Shown in pieces: positions 7,582 through 39,031 of a stretch of 44,509 nt of DNA. Numbering within the stretch: position 1 is the stretch's first letter; each line of letters starts with the position of its first letter. The stretch lies in the UHGV virus genome UHGV-0169625; one strand, 5' to 3'. The notes below the pieces were generated by a model. That model was not told the DNA's origin and made no database searches. It saw only the letters and a program-made list of their open reading frames with translations. The DNA is from a virus. The position numbers and the translations under genes were made by a program.

Positions 7582-7960
7582 ACATAATCGCACCTATTGA
7601 CATTATGAAAATCTTCGTTTAAGGTGCTTCTATATCTTAGTTACTTTGATTCCTGTTCACCTTGTAAAACCGCTTAAAACGCAGCTGCGCGCAGCGCAAG
7701 CAAAGTGTTAAGCGAAAGTTTACTGAACACGAGAATTATCGTAACTTTCCTTCCTAAGTATCTCCGGTTGCCCTGGGCAAGCTCTATTCACATCGGCAGC
7801 ATATCTCTTAAGTATCTGATTTTCTTAATGTGCCGTAGATTCGCAACCGTAAAAATGTAACGATTATTGGGCAGGCTTAGGGCCTGCCCTTTAGTTACCA
7901 AGTAATAAGAATAAAGGCACAACCTTCCCAGAAGAATCACAACGGCAACGTAACTATCTC

Positions 7961-7989
7961 TTGCACGCCCCAACATAATAGGATACTAT
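7961..7989 (+). promoter_or_regulatory. sigma70-like promoter (rightward) with embedded palindromic operator
   Basis: TTGCAC (7961-7966), 17-nt spacer, TACTAT (7984-7989); 7975-7992 reads ATAATAG-gata-CTATTCA; about 35 nt upstream of ATG 8024. Confidence 0.5.
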
Positions 7990-8023
7990 TCACTTATCGA
8001 AACGAGACAGAGGAGTGAGGGTT

Positions 8024-9316: not shown

Positions 9317-9487
9317 ATGAAACTGAATGACATCGTAACCTGGACCGGTAGAAACGGAGAAAAGCGATTCGGGCTTATTGTTGCGTCAGACGGCAACAAG
9401 TACCGTGTTATGCGATGGCGTCAGTGGGCGAGACGCCCGAGATACTACTGGATTCGCAGCGAACGATTATCGTTAAAACACCAATAA
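9317..9487 (+). CDS. hypothetical small basic protein (56 aa)
   Basis: ATG with AGGAG SD; follows two hairpins after the 8981..9181 gene. Confidence 0.35.
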   Translation: MKLNDIVTWTGRNGEKRFGLIVASDGNKYRVMRWRQWARRPRYYWIRSERLSLKHQ

Positions 9488-13961: not shown

Positions 13962-14192
13962 ATGTTTCACGAACTAAAGATATTACCTGAGCATTTTGAA
14001 CCTGTTATGGTAGGAATCAAGCTGGCGGAACTGCGATTAAACGACCGCGATTTCAAGGAAGACGACACTCTGTGCCTGCGAGAATACGAAAACGGTGAAT
14101 ACACAGGCCGTATCGTTTACCGCCGCGTTATTCATGTTGCGGACGTAGGTGCTTACCTGCCTGGATACGTGCTATTAAGTATGGAGGATTGA
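13962..14192 (+). CDS. DUF3850/ASCH-like (PUA-fold) small protein
   Basis: 76 aa; HELKILPEHFEPVMVGIKLAELRLNDRDFKEDDTLCLREY resembles the DUF3850 pattern from recollection. Confidence 0.45.
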   Translation: MFHELKILPEHFEPVMVGIKLAELRLNDRDFKEDDTLCLREYENGEYTGRIVYRRVIHVADVGAYLPGYVLLSMED

Positions 14193-19277: not shown

Positions 19278-19738
19278 TGATGGGCTTTTTCAAAGTAACT
19301 GATGTGCTGTCACGTCGTGTAGTCCAGTACGCCCGCGTGTCTGGCTCTGGCGAGAACGTGGTATTTATCGAAGATGAAAGTGTACTGGGTACACCAGTAG
19401 ACGATATGCCGTTTGCGGATAAAACCGGTATTGCGTTGCCAGCCGCGGGTATGCTTTATGAAATTCCGTATCTGGCTGACGCAGGCGACGTGTACTTCTC
19501 GGCGCAACCGCAGGACGCTGAACTGGCGGACGGCAGCGCAACTATCACTGTCGAAGTTAAGGCGGGCAAAGCGCCGTATGCTCTTACCTGGTACAAAGAC
19601 GGTAAGGAAGTTGTAAACGCACCTGAAGAGGCCTTGTCTCTGACGGTTAACGCAGCAGGTGAATACTTCGTTAAAGTCACCGATGCCGGTGGCGTAGAGG
19701 CCGTCAGTAAAGCGGCGAAGGTAACTAAGCCAGAATGA
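19277..19738 (+). CDS. Ig-like domain protein (probable capsid decoration)
   Basis: C-terminal ATITVEVKAGKAPYALTWYKDGKEV...EYFVKVTDAGG resembles a bacterial Ig-like domain; paralogous to 22475..22813. Confidence 0.5.
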   Translation: MMGFFKVTDVLSRRVVQYARVSGSGENVVFIEDESVLGTPVDDMPFADKTGIALPAAGMLYEIPYLADAGDVYFSAQPQDAELADGSATITVEVKAGKAPYALTWYKDGKEVVNAPEEALSLTVNAAGEYFVKVTDAGGVEAVSKAAKVTKPE

Positions 19739-19743
19739 TAAAA

Positions 19744-19765
19744 AGCCCCGTTAAGGGGCTTTTTA
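19744..19765 (+). terminator. rho-independent terminator
   Basis: AAAAGCCCCGTTAAGGGGCTTTTT, stem flanked by A and T runs. Confidence 0.7.
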
Positions 19766-19828
19766 GTGCCTGTGATTATTCCAGTTATTCCACTAAATTG
19801 TAAATGTTGGAATAAACTATTCGAATAG

Positions 19829-19857
19829 TTGACTTTTCACTGAAAATATGATAAGCT
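19829..19857 (+). promoter_or_regulatory. candidate promoter abutting a 16-bp perfect palindrome
   Basis: TTGACT (19829-19834), 17-nt spacer, TAAGCT (19852-19857); AACTATTCGAATAGTT palindrome at 19815-19830 overlaps the -35. Confidence 0.35.
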
Positions 19858-19864
19858 CCACCTG

Positions 19865-20035
19865 AGCTTGTGAAGTATGAACAAGCGACCGCGGCGCGGG
19901 CAGGTAACGGAGCGGGACGTAAGTCCTGAGTGTAGTTACGCTGACGCGTTCGGAAGGGCCATACTCTATTGCTTGTGTAAAAAGTAACTGGTTTACTGAG
20001 ATTACGCCGTTTCTATGTTTAAATGATAAGGACTA
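19865..20035 (+). ncRNA. candidate structured leader/ncRNA upstream of spanin genes
   Basis: about 170 nt without SD-led ORF between candidate promoter and terminator 20038-20062; several local dyads (CTTGT...ACAAG, CCGCGG, ACGCGT). Confidence 0.3.
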
Positions 20036-20037
20036 GC

Positions 20038-20062
20038 GCCCCGCTTTATGGCGGGGCTTTAC
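20038..20062 (+). terminator. rho-independent terminator 20 nt upstream of Rz start
   Basis: stem GCCCCGC/GCGGGGC, 6-nt loop, then TTTACTT. Confidence 0.55.
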
Positions 20063-20081
20063 TTATCGAGAAAGGAGAAAC

Positions 20082-20468
20082 ATGAATCTTAAAGCAACTG
20101 TCGTAGCGGGAGCATGTTTCATCATCCTGGCTTACGCACACGGCATCTACCAGTATCGCAGCGGCTGGAACGAAGGCCGGGCGAATCTCGTTTCGCAGCA
20201 ACAGCATGAAGCACAAGCTGAGTTAGCGAAGAAAACACAACGGCAGCAGCAGGATGAATCAAAGGCCGCCGCCGCCGACAACGAAGGCAAGACGAAATCA
20301 GAGGTCATTACCCGTGAAGTCGTTAAGTACATTAAAACGCCTGGTCGCAGCGTGTGCACTTTCGATGATGCTCGCGTCCTGCTCAAGTCCCGAGCCGTCG
20401 CAAACGCCAATTCCATACCCGGATACGACAATGATGCAGCCGCCGTGCAAACTGGCCGCACCAAGTAG
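20082..20468 (+). CDS. i-spanin (Rz-like)
   Basis: 128 aa; AAAGGAG SD; N-terminal TM segment ATVVAGACFIILAYAHGIY then charged coiled-coil periplasmic region. Confidence 0.65.
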   Translation: MNLKATVVAGACFIILAYAHGIYQYRSGWNEGRANLVSQQQHEAQAELAKKTQRQQQDESKAAAADNEGKTKSEVITREVVKYIKTPGRSVCTFDDARVLLKSRAVANANSIPGYDNDAAAVQTGRTK

Positions 20469-20577
20469 CGATGCCGACGAGGATTTGGCTATCGACGTCC
20501 AGAACGCCGAATGTGTACGGCAACTGAGGCTGAAAGTGTTCATGTTGCAGGATTACGTGAGGAATATTCTGGAATAG
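20314..20577 (+). CDS. o-spanin (Rz1-like lipoprotein) in +1 frame overlapping Rz
   Basis: GTG start with GAGG upstream; signal peptide plus lipobox (V)KSLSTLKRLVAACALSMMLASC, then Pro-rich PEPSQTPIPYP; starts inside Rz and extends beyond it. Confidence 0.6.
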   Translation: MKSLSTLKRLVAACALSMMLASCSSPEPSQTPIPYPDTTMMQPPCKLAAPSSDADEDLAIDVQNAECVRQLRLKVFMLQDYVRNILE

Positions 20578-20659
20578 TTGCCTTGCATGTTGGAATAATT
20601 TATTCTTGACATGTAAATCCGGGCGGCCCGGGTTCCAACGTCCAGGGGACATACTGACT

Positions 20660-22413: not shown

Positions 22414-22430
22414 GGTTAAGATATAATCGA

Positions 22431-22454
22431 GAGGGACTTCGGTCCCTCTTTTCA
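22431..22454 (+). terminator. rho-independent terminator after capsid gene
   Basis: stem GAGGGAC/GTCCCTC, loop TTCG, then TTTTCATTT. Confidence 0.7.
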
Positions 22455-36793: not shown

Positions 36794-39031
36794 ATGTCAA
36801 GCGGATGCGGTGACGTTTTAAGCCTGGCGGATTTACAAACCGCCAAGAAGCACCAGATTTTCGAAGCTGAGGTTATCACCGGTAAATCCGGCGGTGTTGC
36901 TACGGGTGCTGATATCGATTACGCGACAAATCAGGTTACTGGGCAGACACAGAAGACGTTACCTGCCGTGTTGCGTGATGCTGGTTTTTCTCCTGTATCG
37001 TGGGACTTTTCTACAGGCGGTACGTTAACAGTTAATGACCGCGACAAAGTGGTGTACGACCCTGTAAGTAAAACGTGGTACTCGTACGCGGGGACGTTAC
37101 CAGTTACAGTTCCCGCGAGTTTTAATCCTGTAGGTAACGCTAACTGGAGGCCACAGACCGATCCTAATTTACGTGGTGAGTTATCCATCATTGAAAACAT
37201 AGCTGAGCTTATGTCTAAAACGCCAAACCCAGAACTCACGTACACCGTGAAAGGCTATGCCCCAGGTACGACTTTCGGCGGGGGCATTTTCTACTGGGAC
37301 GCCACCCTCCCTAAGTCACAACACAACGGCATCACTGTATTTAGTCCAACGGTGCCATGGGACGGAACCTACACCACTCTCGCGACCTTCTTAGCTGGCA
37401 CAGGGGAAACCACCCCATCCGGCAGCGGATGCTGGGTCCGTATGCAGAACAGCCGCGACATGCTCGTTTCTTGGGGCGGCGTTGACATCACAGGGACGAA
37501 CGTTGCGGACGCCGCTGTAACCGCTGTTATTAAGTATGCTAATACGGTCAAGCGTTCTGTTAGATTTGACTCTGGTGCAAATATTAAATGGGGCTTCTCT
37601 ACCCTTGTCCAGCACTTTGACAAGTTCAATCGTAATGTGCAATGTTCTGTTGTTCTGGAGAATATCAGCGGGATTAAGGTTTACGCGGAGAATGACGTTG
37701 AGTTCAACACTGACCACCCTACTTATGCGGAGCGTGTTGTCTTTCGCCTTAAAAACTGTAGCGAAGTAGAATTCTCTGGATTCAACTTCAACTCCAATTT
37801 CACCGACTATTCGACGACGACATCGGACACTACGTACAAGCCCCAAGAATGGTGGCAGGGCTTCACGGCCGAAGGTTGTTCTAATCTAGAAATCACTAAG
37901 CATCACGTTAATGCGTGCCAAGTATTTGTAGGGGCTGATTGTACAAACTTAGCAGCAAACCTTCATAACATAGATATTCATGTTACAGATAACATGTTTA
38001 AGTATGTAACGAATTACTGCGTTATTTCCAGAAACATAAATCTGGTTGAATTCAGCCGCAACAAGGTTTCATTTAATGGGCGTAACTGGCACACATTCGG
38101 AGAGGCGTTCGCCCCTACGACAGGCTCCCTTAATATAATTGCCAAAGATAACATTTTTACTAACCAAATTGCGCAGCAGTCGTGTATTACGCCAACTCTG
38201 GGCGCTTCATCTGTAACTATTCAAGGTAATTATTGCCGTCGACATTATGGTATTTTTGTCGAACTCGGTAGTTCGAGCAATGTGTTAATTTCAGGTAACA
38301 CATCAATAAGTACTGGCGAACGTGCGGATACACCACACATTCTTATGGTTGGAGAGGTAGACGGCAACCCGGCGGGAGGTCTTTCAAACGTCAACATTAC
38401 TGCAAACTATTTTGAGGGTGGTGGTTTTGCCGTTCAAGAATACAATACCGGGTCTGCATTGCGCAGGGGTTTCAGTATAACTAACAACCATATGGTTGAC
38501 TGCAAGTTACCCGCCATAACCAACCAATCTTACATTGGCGTGACTGTTCGCGGTAACTATATGGAAGCACCCACTAACTTTCCTGATTTAGCTATCGCAG
38601 GACAGAGGCCTGTTATAGACGGTAACATGTTTGTTGGCGTTAGGGTGCGTGCAAGAGATTTAGGGTATAGCGTAATAGCTCCTAAGGTAACCAACAACGT
38701 ATGGAGAGCAAACTCCATAGGGGAATCATATCCAGCACTTATCGACTATACCGAATTCACCGCATTAGTGGCGGATGGCAACGACTCAACAGCAGCGGCG
38801 TACACGGACTTCATTGTCCACCCTTTAAATTGTAATAATGTAGGGTTCCGCAGAGTAGGCCATACTGAAGGGTTTACTGTCAGCCCTACTGCAAGATTTG
38901 GAGCCAAGCTCACTGATGCCAGAGTAGGTGATTTTGTAGCTAATTCGTCCCCTACAGCATCTGGTGCTTATGCGTGGGTATGCGTTAGCCAATCAACAAA
39001 AGCGTTCAGTTCTATCGCATTGCGCGCATAA
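36794..39031 (+). CDS. tailspike/tail fibre protein (probable beta-helix receptor-binding enzyme)
   Basis: 745 aa, last tail gene, AGAGGA SD, Asn/Gly/Thr/Val-rich repetitive C-terminal two-thirds; followed by strong terminator. Confidence 0.55.
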   Translation: MSSGCGDVLSLADLQTAKKHQIFEAEVITGKSGGVATGADIDYATNQVTGQTQKTLPAVLRDAGFSPVSWDFSTGGTLTVNDRDKVVYDPVSKTWYSYAGTLPVTVPASFNPVGNANWRPQTDPNLRGELSIIENIAELMSKTPNPELTYTVKGYAPGTTFGGGIFYWDATLPKSQHNGITVFSPTVPWDGTYTTLATFLAGTGETTPSGSGCWVRMQNSRDMLVSWGGVDITGTNVADAAVTAVIKYANTVKRSVRFDSGANIKWGFSTLVQHFDKFNRNVQCSVVLENISGIKVYAENDVEFNTDHPTYAERVVFRLKNCSEVEFSGFNFNSNFTDYSTTTSDTTYKPQEWWQGFTAEGCSNLEITKHHVNACQVFVGADCTNLAANLHNIDIHVTDNMFKYVTNYCVISRNINLVEFSRNKVSFNGRNWHTFGEAFAPTTGSLNIIAKDNIFTNQIAQQSCITPTLGASSVTIQGNYCRRHYGIFVELGSSSNVLISGNTSISTGERADTPHILMVGEVDGNPAGGLSNVNITANYFEGGGFAVQEYNTGSALRRGFSITNNHMVDCKLPAITNQSYIGVTVRGNYMEAPTNFPDLAIAGQRPVIDGNMFVGVRVRARDLGYSVIAPKVTNNVWRANSIGESYPALIDYTEFTALVADGNDSTAAAYTDFIVHPLNCNNVGFRRVGHTEGFTVSPTARFGAKLTDARVGDFVANSSPTASGAYAWVCVSQSTKAFSSIALRA

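Follow-up and report, generated by a model that had tools for sequence, protein, structure and literature searches.

A promoter-linked, highly structured leader RNA ahead of the spanin genes of Guernseyvirinae phages and its possible role in transcription elongation

Why should a phage genome maintain a stretch with no recognizable gene directly ahead of its spanin genes? The window, by which we mean the whole stretch of DNA analyzed here (44,509 nucleotides, virus genome UHGV-0169625), carries such a stretch between an Ig-like gene and Rz. On the left, the unit is bounded by the bidirectional terminator of the Ig-like gene (19739-19765), which reads AAAAAGCCCC GTTAA GGGGCTTTTT (inverted repeat I9, 11 nt, 100% complementary) and is also annotated as a terminator in phage Shashou; a ‘tRNA-Ser’ of two GenBank records is a false minus-strand call across this terminator, and ARAGORN recognizes no tRNA or tmRNA in the window. 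On the right, on the + strand, follow the Shine-Dalgarno (SD) sequence AAGGAG of Rz (20072-20077), its start codon ATG (20082-20084), and Rz itself, encoding the i-spanin (20082-20468), with the embedded Rz1, encoding the o-spanin (end at 20577), as read from the ORFs and the Shashou annotation, these being the first genes downstream served by the leader. An earlier note, made from the sequence alone, described the interval as non-coding and structured, ending in a terminator that would have to be read through for spanin expression, and proposed attenuation, antitermination, or an independent structured RNA. We find that positions 19829-20081 comprise a promoter and a transcribed, non-coding, highly structured 5' leader of about 215 nt, which serves the spanin genes and, probably, the scaffold and capsid genes farther on. 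No similar DNA was found in E. coli genomes, and the leader is thus neither a host mimic nor prophage-borne.

As to coding potential, the sole ORF of the region, of 36 aa (19877-19987, + strand), lacks a good Shine-Dalgarno sequence, and we reject it as a gene. Several GenBank records list it as a hypothetical protein, but 6 of the 31 distinct Kagunavirus leaders (L006, L011, L015, L018, L023, and L029) carry a frameshift, a truncation, or no start codon, and in two more the stop is shifted. All of the substitutions observed in it are amino-acid changes, and the ORF annotated in the Jerseyvirus records is another one. A conserved upstream mini-ORF after GGAAGGG was also considered and rejected, its frames and peptides varying between clades. 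The region has no conserved ORF, in agreement with the earlier reading, and a conserved protein-coding gene, looked for in the relatives, is absent. A DNA-level element, such as an origin or a packaging site, could be suspected from the repeated GGAATAA sites, which look like iterons, but the helices described below retain G-U pairs, and these would be A-C mismatches on the opposite strand. A small protein gene or a DNA-level element is the least credible explanation of this locus that we have considered.

The leader is preceded by what, judging from its sequence, appears to be a host-type (sigma-70, extended -10) promoter (19829-19857, + strand), with a -35 hexamer TTGACT (19829-19834), a 17-nt spacer, an extended -10 element TGaTAAGCT (19849-19857), and a predicted transcription start near 19864. 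A simple promoter scanner omits this site because TAAGCT matches TATAAT at only three of six positions. The form TGnTA(A/C)(G/C)CT is conserved across genera, phage phi135 has a promoter annotated at the corresponding place, and in L121 and Shashou this form has been copied along with the RNA module discussed below. Upstream lies a cluster of operator-like GGAATA half-sites (19776-19830), recognized through enrichment of TGGAATAR, which is present eight times in the window versus 2.15 expected (0 of 100 shuffles reach eight), with five of the eight sites flanking the spanin genes. The cluster is composed of copies of TGGAATAA at 19776-19783 and 19785-19792 (both on the - strand) and at 19808-19815 (+ strand), followed by AACTATTCGAATAGTT (19815-19830), a perfect 16-bp palindrome that shares 2 nt with the -35 hexamer and is the sole one of such length in the window. 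The overlap of such a palindrome with a candidate -35 had been pointed out before, and both are indeed there. Taken alone, the palindrome is not significant, as block shuffles contain 0.65 on average, and 48% of them contain at least one; it is meaningful because it is made of GGAATA/TATTC half-sites. The positions of the GGAATA motif are kept in most Kagunavirus and Jerseyvirus loci, and the motif is found too in Cornellvirus SP-031, TS33, and phiEap-2. A second operator cluster (20570-20605) follows Rz1, with TGGAATAG at 20570-20577, TGGAATAA at 20591-20598, and a palindrome GAATAAtTTATTC at 20593-20605, and is overlapped by a possible promoter of the scaffold gene (TTGCCT, 17 nt, TATTCT). 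Nucleotide diversity at this second cluster is 0.05-0.07, and its GAATAATTTATTCTT block is invariant in the aligned Kagunavirus, Jerseyvirus, phiEap-2, and TS33 sequences. GAATAAnTTATTC may be a protein-binding DNA site common to both promoters.

From its 5' end, the leader folds into the hairpin P1 and the rod P2, continues through a single-stranded centre, and closes with a 3' rod made of H0 and P4. Folding z-scores versus shuffles are -3.1 for P1, -2.2 for P2, -4.6 for H0 plus P4, and -1.8 for the whole leader; the internal dyads noticed earlier are present and fold better than shuffles. P1 (19866-19886, + strand), a 5'-terminal hairpin of GCUUGU and ACAAGC around a 9-nt loop, starts 1-2 nt from the predicted transcription start and reveals compensatory changes between genera in four of its six pairs. 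P2 (19889-19953, + strand) is a 65-nt irregular rod whose MFE structure is also its centroid structure (-30 kcal/mol), composed of the helices CCG/CGG (at the base), GGCGCG/CGCGUU, CAG/CUG, and GUAAC/GUUAC, a conserved internal loop with GGAGC on the 5' side and GAGUGUA on the 3' side, and an apical hairpin GGGAC-GUAA-GUCC(U). Its covariation is seen in Kagunavirus alone as well as with Jerseyvirus and the early-operon copies, and the frequent G-U pairs in the helices point to an RNA encoded on the + strand. Single-stranded motifs follow (19951-19974, + strand), CGGAAGGGCC at 19951-19960 and CUAUUGCUU at 19966-19974, their columns invariant or almost so in alignments A1 and A10, with similar motifs in the type B leaders and in the early leader of the window. 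The segment 19954-20008 gives no structure signal (z +0.5). A further conserved motif, AGAUUACGCCGU (19999-20010, + strand), contains AGATT, invariant in Kagunavirus and Jerseyvirus, the remainder being invariant or nearly so within Kagunavirus, and related UUACGGCA motifs are present in the type B and type C leaders. In the 3' rod (20009-20081, + strand), H0 encloses P4. The H0 strand GUUUCU (20009-20014) pairs with AGAAAC (20076-20081), covering the last two SD nucleotides and the SD-AUG spacer, and its changes among the relatives include U-A to A-U, along with wobble changes. P4 (20024-20068, + strand; z -4.8), a long stem-loop with a terminator-like match, consists of a lower stem UGAUAAG/CUUAUCG, a GAC bulge, UAG/UUA, and an upper G+C stem at 20038-20057. 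MFE folding predicts 6+3+7+3+8, or about 27, base pairs for the interrupted H0/P4 rod. A long-range helix between the 5' end and the sequence past the hairpin was also proposed by RNAalifold; we keep it only as a possible alternative pairing, since the lower stem of P4, with which it is in competition, has the better support.

Comparisons with the relatives indicate that every helix of the leader is maintained by compensatory changes. In a MAFFT alignment of Kagunavirus only, 97.3% of the cells are paired, versus 95.5% in shuffled alignments (0 of 500 reach the observed value) and 27-41% with slid partners, and double changes are observed in four pairs versus 0.9 expected. In structure-aware alignments 96-97% of the cells are paired, versus 80-81% shuffled and about 30-44% with slid partners, covariance-model alignments being biased toward the model's own structure. 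The number of compensatory pairs is 15 of 30 with Jerseyvirus added and 18 of 30 with the early-operon copies added, with a covariation score of 0.444 versus 0.163. For the 3' domain (H0 plus P4), whose covariance model holds 24 of the predicted pairs of the rod, compensatory changes are seen in 8 of the 24, seven of these in P4, and 95% of the cells are paired, versus 84% shuffled and 40-51% slid. The structured RNA suggested in the earlier note is therefore genuinely structured, with pairing far above that of slid partners, and the structure is conserved in related phages. Constraint at the nucleotide level is stronger on the leader than on the flanking genes: nucleotide diversity, at 0.03-0.05, is lower in the leader than anywhere else in the 3.4 kb compared. 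It is 0.06-0.16 in Rz and 0.11-0.17 in the Ig-like gene, and in the scaffold gene most values are 0.15-0.26. Rfam 15 contains no match at gathering score for the whole window or for nine relatives, and at E values up to 10 the region gave chance matches only, on the two terminator hairpins; a literature search found nothing on the leader RNA. The one Kagunavirus RNA-seq paper found presents gene-level values only, with no intergenic data. By these comparisons, the leader appears to represent a hitherto undescribed RNA family across Guernseyvirinae. When model R1 was run on the type B and type C leaders, it produced one weak but correctly placed match, in phiEap-2 (17.5 bits, E 0.005), suggestive of homology between the leader types. 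Among metagenome pattern matches, 19 of 50 were not recognized by the covariance model and were treated as chance.

Does this leader end in a terminator? The hairpin at 20038-20057, the top terminator-like match, has eight pairs (seven G-C), a 4-nt loop, and a tail TTTACTTATC, and so a terminator-shaped hairpin does stand before Rz, 20 nt ahead of its ribosome binding site. With intrinsic terminators it shares, in this phage, the 8-bp G+C stem, the 4-nt loop, and the tail UUUACUUAUC after the stem, with 6 U in 10; it differs from them in that the U-run is not conserved in Jerseyvirus or type B leaders and in that the hairpin forms only the end of a rod that is longer and conserved. The corresponding tail is UUAGCGUAU in Jerseyvirus, UGUUACGAU in SP-031, and UCAUUCGAA in TS33 (the latter two Cornellvirus-type); the U-tract is passable in Kagunavirus only, whereas Jerseyvirus and the Cornellvirus-type phages keep the stem-loop without the U-run. 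The stem itself is compensatory, with C-G, G-C, A-U, and U-A all seen at one pair, and the conserved feature is a longer stem-loop of about 18 bp, along with a closing helix that pairs the SD-AUG spacer. As the U-run is confined to Kagunavirus, the idea of a terminator that must be read through is only partly supported: the hairpin with a passable U-tract stands for Kagunavirus, and the U-run is not kept in the sister genera.

A promoter, a structured RNA of 200 nt, and a terminator-shaped hairpin, all of them present here, could also define an independent trans-acting sRNA of some 200 nt, either terminated by the hairpin 20038-20057 or excised from the leader, with the spanins expressed from a minority of readthrough transcripts. 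The very high sequence conservation and the two paralogous copies in many genomes, common for sRNAs, would fit, and the centre of the leader, being conserved and unstructured, could act as a seed. However, the U-tail is short here and missing in the sister genera, the early-operon copies possess other 3' parts and hairpins without good U-runs, and H0 covaries with sequence past the hairpin. As the 3' strand of H0 sits past the U-run, H0 can only form in readthrough RNA, and as it covaries, the leader likely works, at least partly, as an mRNA leader. We consider an sRNA unlikely. A riboswitch, or another ligand-sensing attenuator timing spanin expression, is highly improbable: a long leader does end in a hairpin adjoining the ribosome binding site, but there is no Rfam match, even at permissive settings, the fold, made up of hairpins and rods, lacks both a pseudoknot and a multi-helix junction, Kagunavirus and Jerseyvirus share no alternative terminator/antiterminator pairing, and the module heads an unrelated operon too. 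Pairing of CGCCGU with the hairpin arms, as an antiterminator, was also tried and was rejected as inconsistent between genera.

The rod at the 3' end lends itself to a different reading, of a post-transcriptional leader with no effect on RNA polymerase. On the model of the T7 RNase III sites or the lambda N leader, P1 would serve as a 5' stabilizer hairpin, and P2 and H0/P4 would be operators, for a protein or for RNase III, that determine how long the mRNA lasts, how it is processed, and how well Rz is translated. Consistent with it are the position of P1 next to the predicted start, the covariation of the rod, which has about 27 bp and at its base pairs with the SD-AUG spacer, the long stem-loop that Jerseyvirus and the type B relatives without a U-run keep before the SD, and a small ASCH/DUF3850 protein encoded at 13962-14192, whose PHROG family is labelled ‘RNA-binding protein’. 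In the full leader, the predicted unpaired probability at 20076-20081 is 0.0. The predicted masking of the SD as a whole is moderate, with a mean unpaired probability of 0.40 in the full leader versus 0.65 in a short transcript, similar to other genes, which speaks against this reading, while the AH01-type leader, with predicted values of 0.06 versus 0.54, has strong masking and speaks for it. It also leaves unexplained why the core promoter moves with P1-P2 on duplication, and why the sequence of the P2 internal loop is fixed beyond pairing. We view a purely post-transcriptional role as possible, if on balance doubtful.

The core promoter and P1-P2 constitute a self-contained portable module. 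BLAST with this module finds 223 places in 181 records, and in at least 42 of the 181 related genomes the early rightward operon, too, begins with a copy. In L121 (88 bits) and in Shashou (62 bits, E 3e-15), the covariance model recognizes this additional copy, together with the same core promoter, at a distance of 11.7 kb upstream and ahead of the first early + strand gene. The operator cluster is left out of the copied module, and downstream of the early-operon copies stand other 3' parts and hairpins without good U-runs. In late and early leaders alike, the module has a promoter on one side and, on the other, a G+C hairpin whose U-run is imperfect. The window itself possesses one copy, no second one being found with filters off, and a weak R2 match at 7828-7916 represents the hairpin of its early leader; as the early operon of the window lacks the module, the module must be dispensable there. 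Its additional place ahead of the early operon in many sister phages suggests a reusable RNA control element. The element is not specific to the spanins: a promoter and a structured leader do precede Rz, but in many Kagunaviruses the module also heads the early operon.

The reading that we tentatively prefer, while rating it somewhat below an even chance, is that the leader is a cis-acting, promoter-proximal RNA governing elongation or readthrough, similar to nut or put sites. Attenuation or antitermination thus remains the leading reading, for reasons partly other than those of the earlier note. The module would act in cis, on the polymerase that has just transcribed it, with the nascent P1-P2 RNA either working alone, as HK022 put does, or binding a phage factor, as lambda nut does. 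The recognition surface would be the internal loop GGAGC/GAGUGUA, along with the following stretch of CGGAAGGGCC...CUAUUG. Candidates for proteins that might bind the leader are the ASCH/DUF3850 protein mentioned above and an Arg-rich protein of 56 aa encoded at 9317-9487. The modified elongation complex would then pass the leaky hairpin/terminator at 20038-20067 and later ones, such as 22429-22450, so that the spanin and head genes would be expressed at the right time; further + strand terminators are indeed found downstream of the leader, with no scanner-detected promoter behind them (scanner and Shashou annotation). In the readthrough RNA, the H0/P4 rod would also mask the SD-AUG spacer of Rz, keeping spanin translation low or dependent on processing. 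In a more far-reaching version, which we rate as rather improbable, the virulent Guernseyvirinae would possess in the core promoter and P1-P2 a portable antitermination device of a new kind, processive and made of RNA, either factor-free like HK022 put or docking an unrecognised phage factor. Polymerases from the promoters so marked would ignore the many + strand terminators, and this would set the course from early to late expression, spanin and capsid genes included. Some observations weigh against elongation control. As the U-run is weak or absent outside Kagunavirus, termination may be minor, and a device for overcoming it would not be needed; the candidate promoter just before the scaffold gene would also make readthrough less necessary. 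The early operon of the window does without the module, boxA and boxB are absent, and the predicted masking of the SD is moderate. An antiterminator-like protein, of the N, Q, or any other type, was recognized neither in annotations (no Q-family protein is annotated in Shashou or Shelanagig) nor by Pfam and PHROG among eight early small proteins.

The question is of some consequence. Few coliphages and Salmonella phages are isolated for therapy and food safety as often as Guernseyvirinae (Kagunavirus, Jerseyvirus, and relatives); almost nothing is known of their gene timing, and no late regulator is annotated. Around the head genes no stretch is more conserved than the leader, and records routinely give it, wrongly, as a hypothetical protein. 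If control of elongation proves true, this would be only the second known kind of phage RNA-based antitermination module, or else the site of a new factor, and it would account for the string of + strand terminators. Even as an operator of stability or translation, the leader would be a new RNA family with clear covariation, ready for Rfam.

How does this leader compare to known systems? In lambda, the late leader from pR' is a 194-nt ‘6S’ RNA ending at tR', and antitermination by Q is needed for late expression. The locus described here shares with it the order of a promoter, a leader of about 200 nt, and a terminator just before lysis and head genes, as well as a -10-like repeat at about +1 (TAAGCT...TGAGCT here, TACGCT...TACGCT in Jerseyvirus). 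It differs in that the repeat here, TGAGCT (19863-19868), lacks the key A at position 2, whereas Jerseyvirus repeats TACGCT exactly, in that no Q homologue is recognized, and in that the hairpin has no U-run in the sister genera; the lambda late leader is not known for a conserved covarying structure. The lambda N leader combines nutL with a hairpin that is sensitive to RNase III and lies before the ribosome binding site of N; like it, the leader described here is over 200 nt long and would join an elongation-control site to a long irregular hairpin that reaches the first gene's ribosome binding site. The T7 RNase III sites have an upper stem, an internal loop, and a lower stem, and the H0/P4 rod has this layout, its interrupted duplex extending over about two turns; P2 is an interrupted duplex of 30 kcal/mol. 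Unlike the lambda N leader, the one described here has no boxA or boxB. The boxA consensus is CGCUCUUA or UGCUCUUUA, and we rejected a boxA reading of ACUCUAUUGC because its CUCU core varies among the relatives (AGGCUAUUG, GUCUAUUG, CUAUAUUG); a 15-nt boxB hairpin with a GNRA-like pentaloop is absent, the tip of P2 being a GUAA tetraloop on a 65-nt rod, versus UCACAA in Jerseyvirus. A further comparison is with putL and putR of HK022, which act in processive antitermination as RNA only, as two irregular stem-loops formed from the 5' end of the transcript (PMC9378689). The phages considered here are virulent siphoviruses and not lambdoid, the window possesses one copy, and the P1-P2 region is of 88 nt versus about 73 nt for put, which depends on the zinc-binding domain of the beta' subunit of RNA polymerase. 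The likeness is a resemblance in architecture and position: two irregular stem-loops, interrupted by bulges and containing non-canonical pairs, open the transcript, the element would act in cis, and many of the relatives have copies at the heads of two terminator-containing operons.

The DNA separating the Ig-like gene from the spanin genes Rz/Rz1 encodes a structured leader RNA of a new and well-supported family, whose promoter-proximal module is portable; neither Rfam nor the literature searched contained anything on it. The spanin-gap region is 100% identical in Escherichia phage K1ind3 and Kagunavirus 536P11 and 94-99% identical across some 180 records of Kagunavirus and related phages, and has no match among 5,426 E. 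coli genomes. Genes in the well-annotated relative Shashou run from terminase, portal, head morphogenesis, and Ig-like protein to a terminator and the gap, then i-spanin/o-spanin, scaffold, major capsid, and a second terminator, ahead of the other head and tail genes; holin and endolysin genes are some 8 kb distant. In the window, a strong bidirectional terminator (19739-19765) comes directly after the Ig-like gene, which stops at 19738. The leader is the most conserved part of the 3.4 kb compared: in 36 Kagunavirus loci, nucleotide diversity between the promoter and the start of Rz is 0.03-0.05, versus 0.11-0.17 for the Ig-like gene, 0.06-0.16 for Rz, and mostly 0.15-0.26 for the scaffold gene.

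The claim of an earlier note that the region is non-coding has held, as a conserved protein gene was sought in relatives and the ORF was found broken. The sole ORF in the leader (19877-19987, 36 aa), a 'hypothetical protein' in some records, has no real Shine-Dalgarno (SD) sequence. It was rejected as a gene because it is frameshifted, truncated or startless in 6 of the 31 distinct Kagunavirus leaders (the stop being moved in two more), all substitutions observed in it are amino-acid changing, and Jerseyvirus annotators have annotated a different ORF. Many deposited genomes (e.g., MK931440, MK931446, MH992509) label the leader as a small 'hypothetical protein', with the ORF differing by genus, and two GenBank records carry a 'tRNA-Ser', a false minus-strand call covering the upstream terminator; both labels are likely annotation errors. 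ARAGORN detected no tRNA or tmRNA in the window.

The predicted fold starts with hairpin P1 at the extreme 5' end of the RNA (19866-19886, +) and P2 (19889-19953, +), an irregular rod of 65 nt that is tipped by GUAA and interrupted by a conserved internal loop (5' strand GGAGC, 3' strand GAGUGUA). The centre of the RNA (19954-20008, +; z +0.5 for folding) is single-stranded and carries the conserved motifs CGGAAGGGCC, CUAUUGCUU, and AGAUUACGCCGU. At the base of the 3' rod, helix H0 (GUUUCU at 20009-14 pairing with AGAAAC at 20076-81, +) encloses the P4 stem-loop (20024-20068, +), whose tip had been named a terminator. Conservation of the structure has been checked in related phages, and the helices are kept, with compensatory changes, in both Kagunavirus and Jerseyvirus. 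When 19 distinct Kagunavirus 5' domains are aligned by MAFFT alone, paired cells amount to 97.3%, versus 95.5% in shuffled alignments (0 of 500 reaching the observed value) and 27-41% with slid partners, and double-sided changes are found in 4 pairs, versus 0.9 expected. A covariance model built from this alignment detects the Jerseyvirus leaders at E 1e-9 to 1e-12 (4e-8 for one older record, MB78). With Jerseyvirus added, 15 of 30 pairs are compensatory, as are 8 of 24 in the 3' domain model, H0 contributing one of them and the P4 lower stem two, bearing in mind that model-fitted alignments are biased toward the structure of their own model. The slid controls, together with the alignment made by MAFFT alone, argue for a real covariation signal, and the RNA can be assigned to the + strand by its many G-U pairs. 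Rfam 15 returned no match for the window and nine relatives, which, along with the absence of a junction, a pseudoknot, and any conserved alternative pairing, makes a riboswitch unlikely.

The features named in the earlier note were all found in place. One is the perfect palindrome AACTATTCGAATAGTT (19815-19830), the sole 16-bp one within the window, which by itself proves nothing, since about half of shuffled sequences contain at least one. It is composed of GGAATA/TATTC half-sites, and the window has 8 copies of TGGAATAR versus 2.15 expected, a count reached in 0 of 100 shuffles. Five of the eight copies fall into two clusters, one on either side of the spanin genes, and the positions are retained in most Kagunavirus and Jerseyvirus loci. 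The first cluster spans 19776-19830; the second (20570-20605), immediately upstream of the scaffold gene, comprises the palindrome GAATAAtTTATTC, invariant in the aligned Kagunavirus, Jerseyvirus, phiEap-2, and TS33 sequences, and adjoining GGAATAG/GGAATAA sites, and is overlapped by a conserved promoter candidate (TTGCCT, 17 nt, TATTCT). The GGAATA-type sites appear to be operator-like, for a putative DNA-binding protein, and the second cluster looks like a candidate operator, with a putative phage regulator that would govern both the spanin promoter and a scaffold/capsid promoter. The former (TTGACT 19829-34, 17 nt, TGaTAAGCT 19849-57, +; predicted transcript start ~19864, +) is not listed by the promoter scanner because its -10 fits TATAAT poorly; its important A and T are present, as is the TG extension, and the extended -10 form TGnTA(A/C)(G/C)CT is recurrent across genera. 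A second version of the -10 hexamer follows it within a few bases (19852-19868; TAAGCT...TGAGCT in Kagunavirus, TACGCT...TACGCT in Jerseyvirus, L002 2613-2627), the repeat covarying with the -10 between genera, and could be a sigma-dependent pause signal or merely the 5' arm of P1. Many other Kagunaviruses possess 170-770 nt of additional DNA between the Ig-like terminator and the first cluster, at a site (19762-19773) where the window has none. The insert is variable minus-strand cargo (L007 603-1124 (-); L025 400-1128 (-)), examples being a 173-aa protein and a 242-aa putative DNA methyltransferase-like protein, called by a DPPY-like motif, and the site is an insertion hot spot. A good minus-strand promoter match within the first cluster (TTTACA, 18 nt, TG-AATAAT, 10/12; 19804-19775 (-)) is aimed at this site; in this phage it would lead straight into the bidirectional terminator.

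As to the terminator proposed before Rz, the hairpin at 20038-20057 is the top terminator-like match, and its tail in this phage (UUUACUUAUC) is passable, not worse than those of other terminators of the genome, but the U-run is not kept in sister genera. The Jerseyvirus tail is UUAGCGUAU, and no U-run follows the stem-loop in Cornellvirus SP-031, TS33, phiEap-2, or AH01; all of these retain a long stem-loop a few bases upstream of the Rz ribosome binding site. The conserved feature is therefore the rod, and termination at the P4 hairpin would at best be confined to Kagunavirus. H0, as its pairing needs sequence past the U-run, is present solely in readthrough RNA and, since it covaries, the leader has at least some function as an mRNA leader. 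At 20076-81 the full leader has a predicted unpaired probability of 0.0, but overall SD masking is predicted to be moderate (mean unpaired probability 0.40, versus 0.65 in a short transcript). A post-transcriptional role only, as a 5' stabiliser, an RNase III or protein operator, or a translational mask of Rz, is the second most probable reading, a little less likely than control of elongation.

The module, consisting of the core promoter and P1-P2, is also found at early operons, and thus the element is not spanin-specific. A metagenome pattern scan returned 50 loci, 30 of them with the leader. One example of duplication is locus L121, where a further 5'-domain copy (88 bits) lies 11.7 kb upstream in the same orientation. 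This copy shares the core promoter (TTGACT, 17 nt, TGcTAAGCT), shows new compensatory variants, and heads the early rightward operon, divergent to an AlpA-like helix-turn-helix gene and without the GGAATAA cluster. Another is Shashou (37536-37650; 62 bits, E 3e-15). BLAST located 223 places in 181 records, and so at least 42 genomes have two copies. With four early-operon copies added, compensatory pairs rise to 18 of 30, and conservation persists in UUCGGAAGGGCC, in CUAUUG, and in the internal loop GAGUG(U)A. The element is a cassette of promoter and nascent RNA, heading + strand transcription units with several terminators. The window has a single copy, as does Jerseyvirus Shelanagig, and their early leaders (7597-8023 in the window) are distinct in sequence from the module and carry a GGGC(A/G)AGCU(C/A)UAUUC motif; a G+C hairpin whose U-run is weak, flanked by GUAAC/GUUAC (7858-7899), is present at least in the window. 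This leader of the window's early rightward operon is untranslated, about 400 nt long, with its own promoter (TTGACA, 17 nt, TAAGGT) and the motif GGGCAAGCUCUAUUC at ~7775-7789; the Jerseyvirus leader is related, and P1-P2 takes the place of the 5' part in 42 or more sister phages.

Elsewhere in the subfamily, pre-Rz leaders are of type B (SP-031, L071, phiEap-2, TS33), of another type (AH01, L072), and of type C (Serratia phages Otaku and Smarc3), none aligning with the Kagunavirus leader. Common to all is a layout of a 5' hairpin, a G+C-rich structured part, and an A+U-rich part, and all except Otaku and Smarc3 have the long stem-loop upstream of the SD; the GGAATAA cluster and the extended -10 are retained in SP-031, L071, phiEap-2, and TS33. 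Shared pieces include ACCGCGCGGAAGGG, UAGCG, GUAAC..GUAA..GUUAC, and UUACGGCA, and the model, run with filters off, matches phiEap-2 weakly (17.5 bits, E 0.005) at the expected position. Common descent is likely but not established. In type B leaders (L073 954-1084, phiEap-2; L055, L057, L071), ACCGCG-CGGAAGGG is contiguous, with the GUAAC..GUAA..GUUAC hairpin upstream; in the window the long P2 rod separates ACCGCG from CGGAAGGG, which looks like a rearrangement of shared pieces.

Overall, the observation of the earlier note is confirmed as a whole and its interpretation is supported in part: the non-coding structured leader with a promoter stands, the terminator is passable in this phage and not the feature that relatives conserve, and the element is not restricted to the spanin genes. 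The proposed attenuation or antitermination has the promoter, the structured RNA, and the hairpin in its favor; against it, the U-run is not conserved, no N-like or Q-like protein was found in relatives' annotation or among early small proteins, and no boxA/boxB was found in the leader. Control of elongation or readthrough by the leader is the leading but tentative reading, somewhat short of an even chance, and a possible pre-scaffold promoter would lessen the need for readthrough. The module would act in cis, on the transcribing polymerase or the nascent transcript, as indicated by the core promoter moving with P1-P2, by the position of the module between promoter and leaky hairpin in both operons, and by the internal-loop sequence being fixed beyond mere pairing; a trans-acting sRNA is improbable. 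The mechanism is directly testable. One candidate for a putative partner of the RNA is a 76-aa protein encoded just upstream of the terminase genes (13962-14192, +), with a DUF3850/ASCH-like domain (Pfam E 4.7e-18), which falls in PHROG family 986, a family bearing the label 'RNA-binding protein'. A 56-aa early protein (9317-9487, +; PHROG 9384) with an arginine-rich C-terminal stretch, RVMRWRQWARRPRYYWIRSER, is noted solely because lambdoid N proteins use arginine-rich motifs to bind RNA hairpins. The nearest analogues of the leader are the lambda nut sites, the lambda late leader, and HK022 put, the latter represented by two irregular stem-loops at the transcript start, whose action is protein-independent (PMC9378689).
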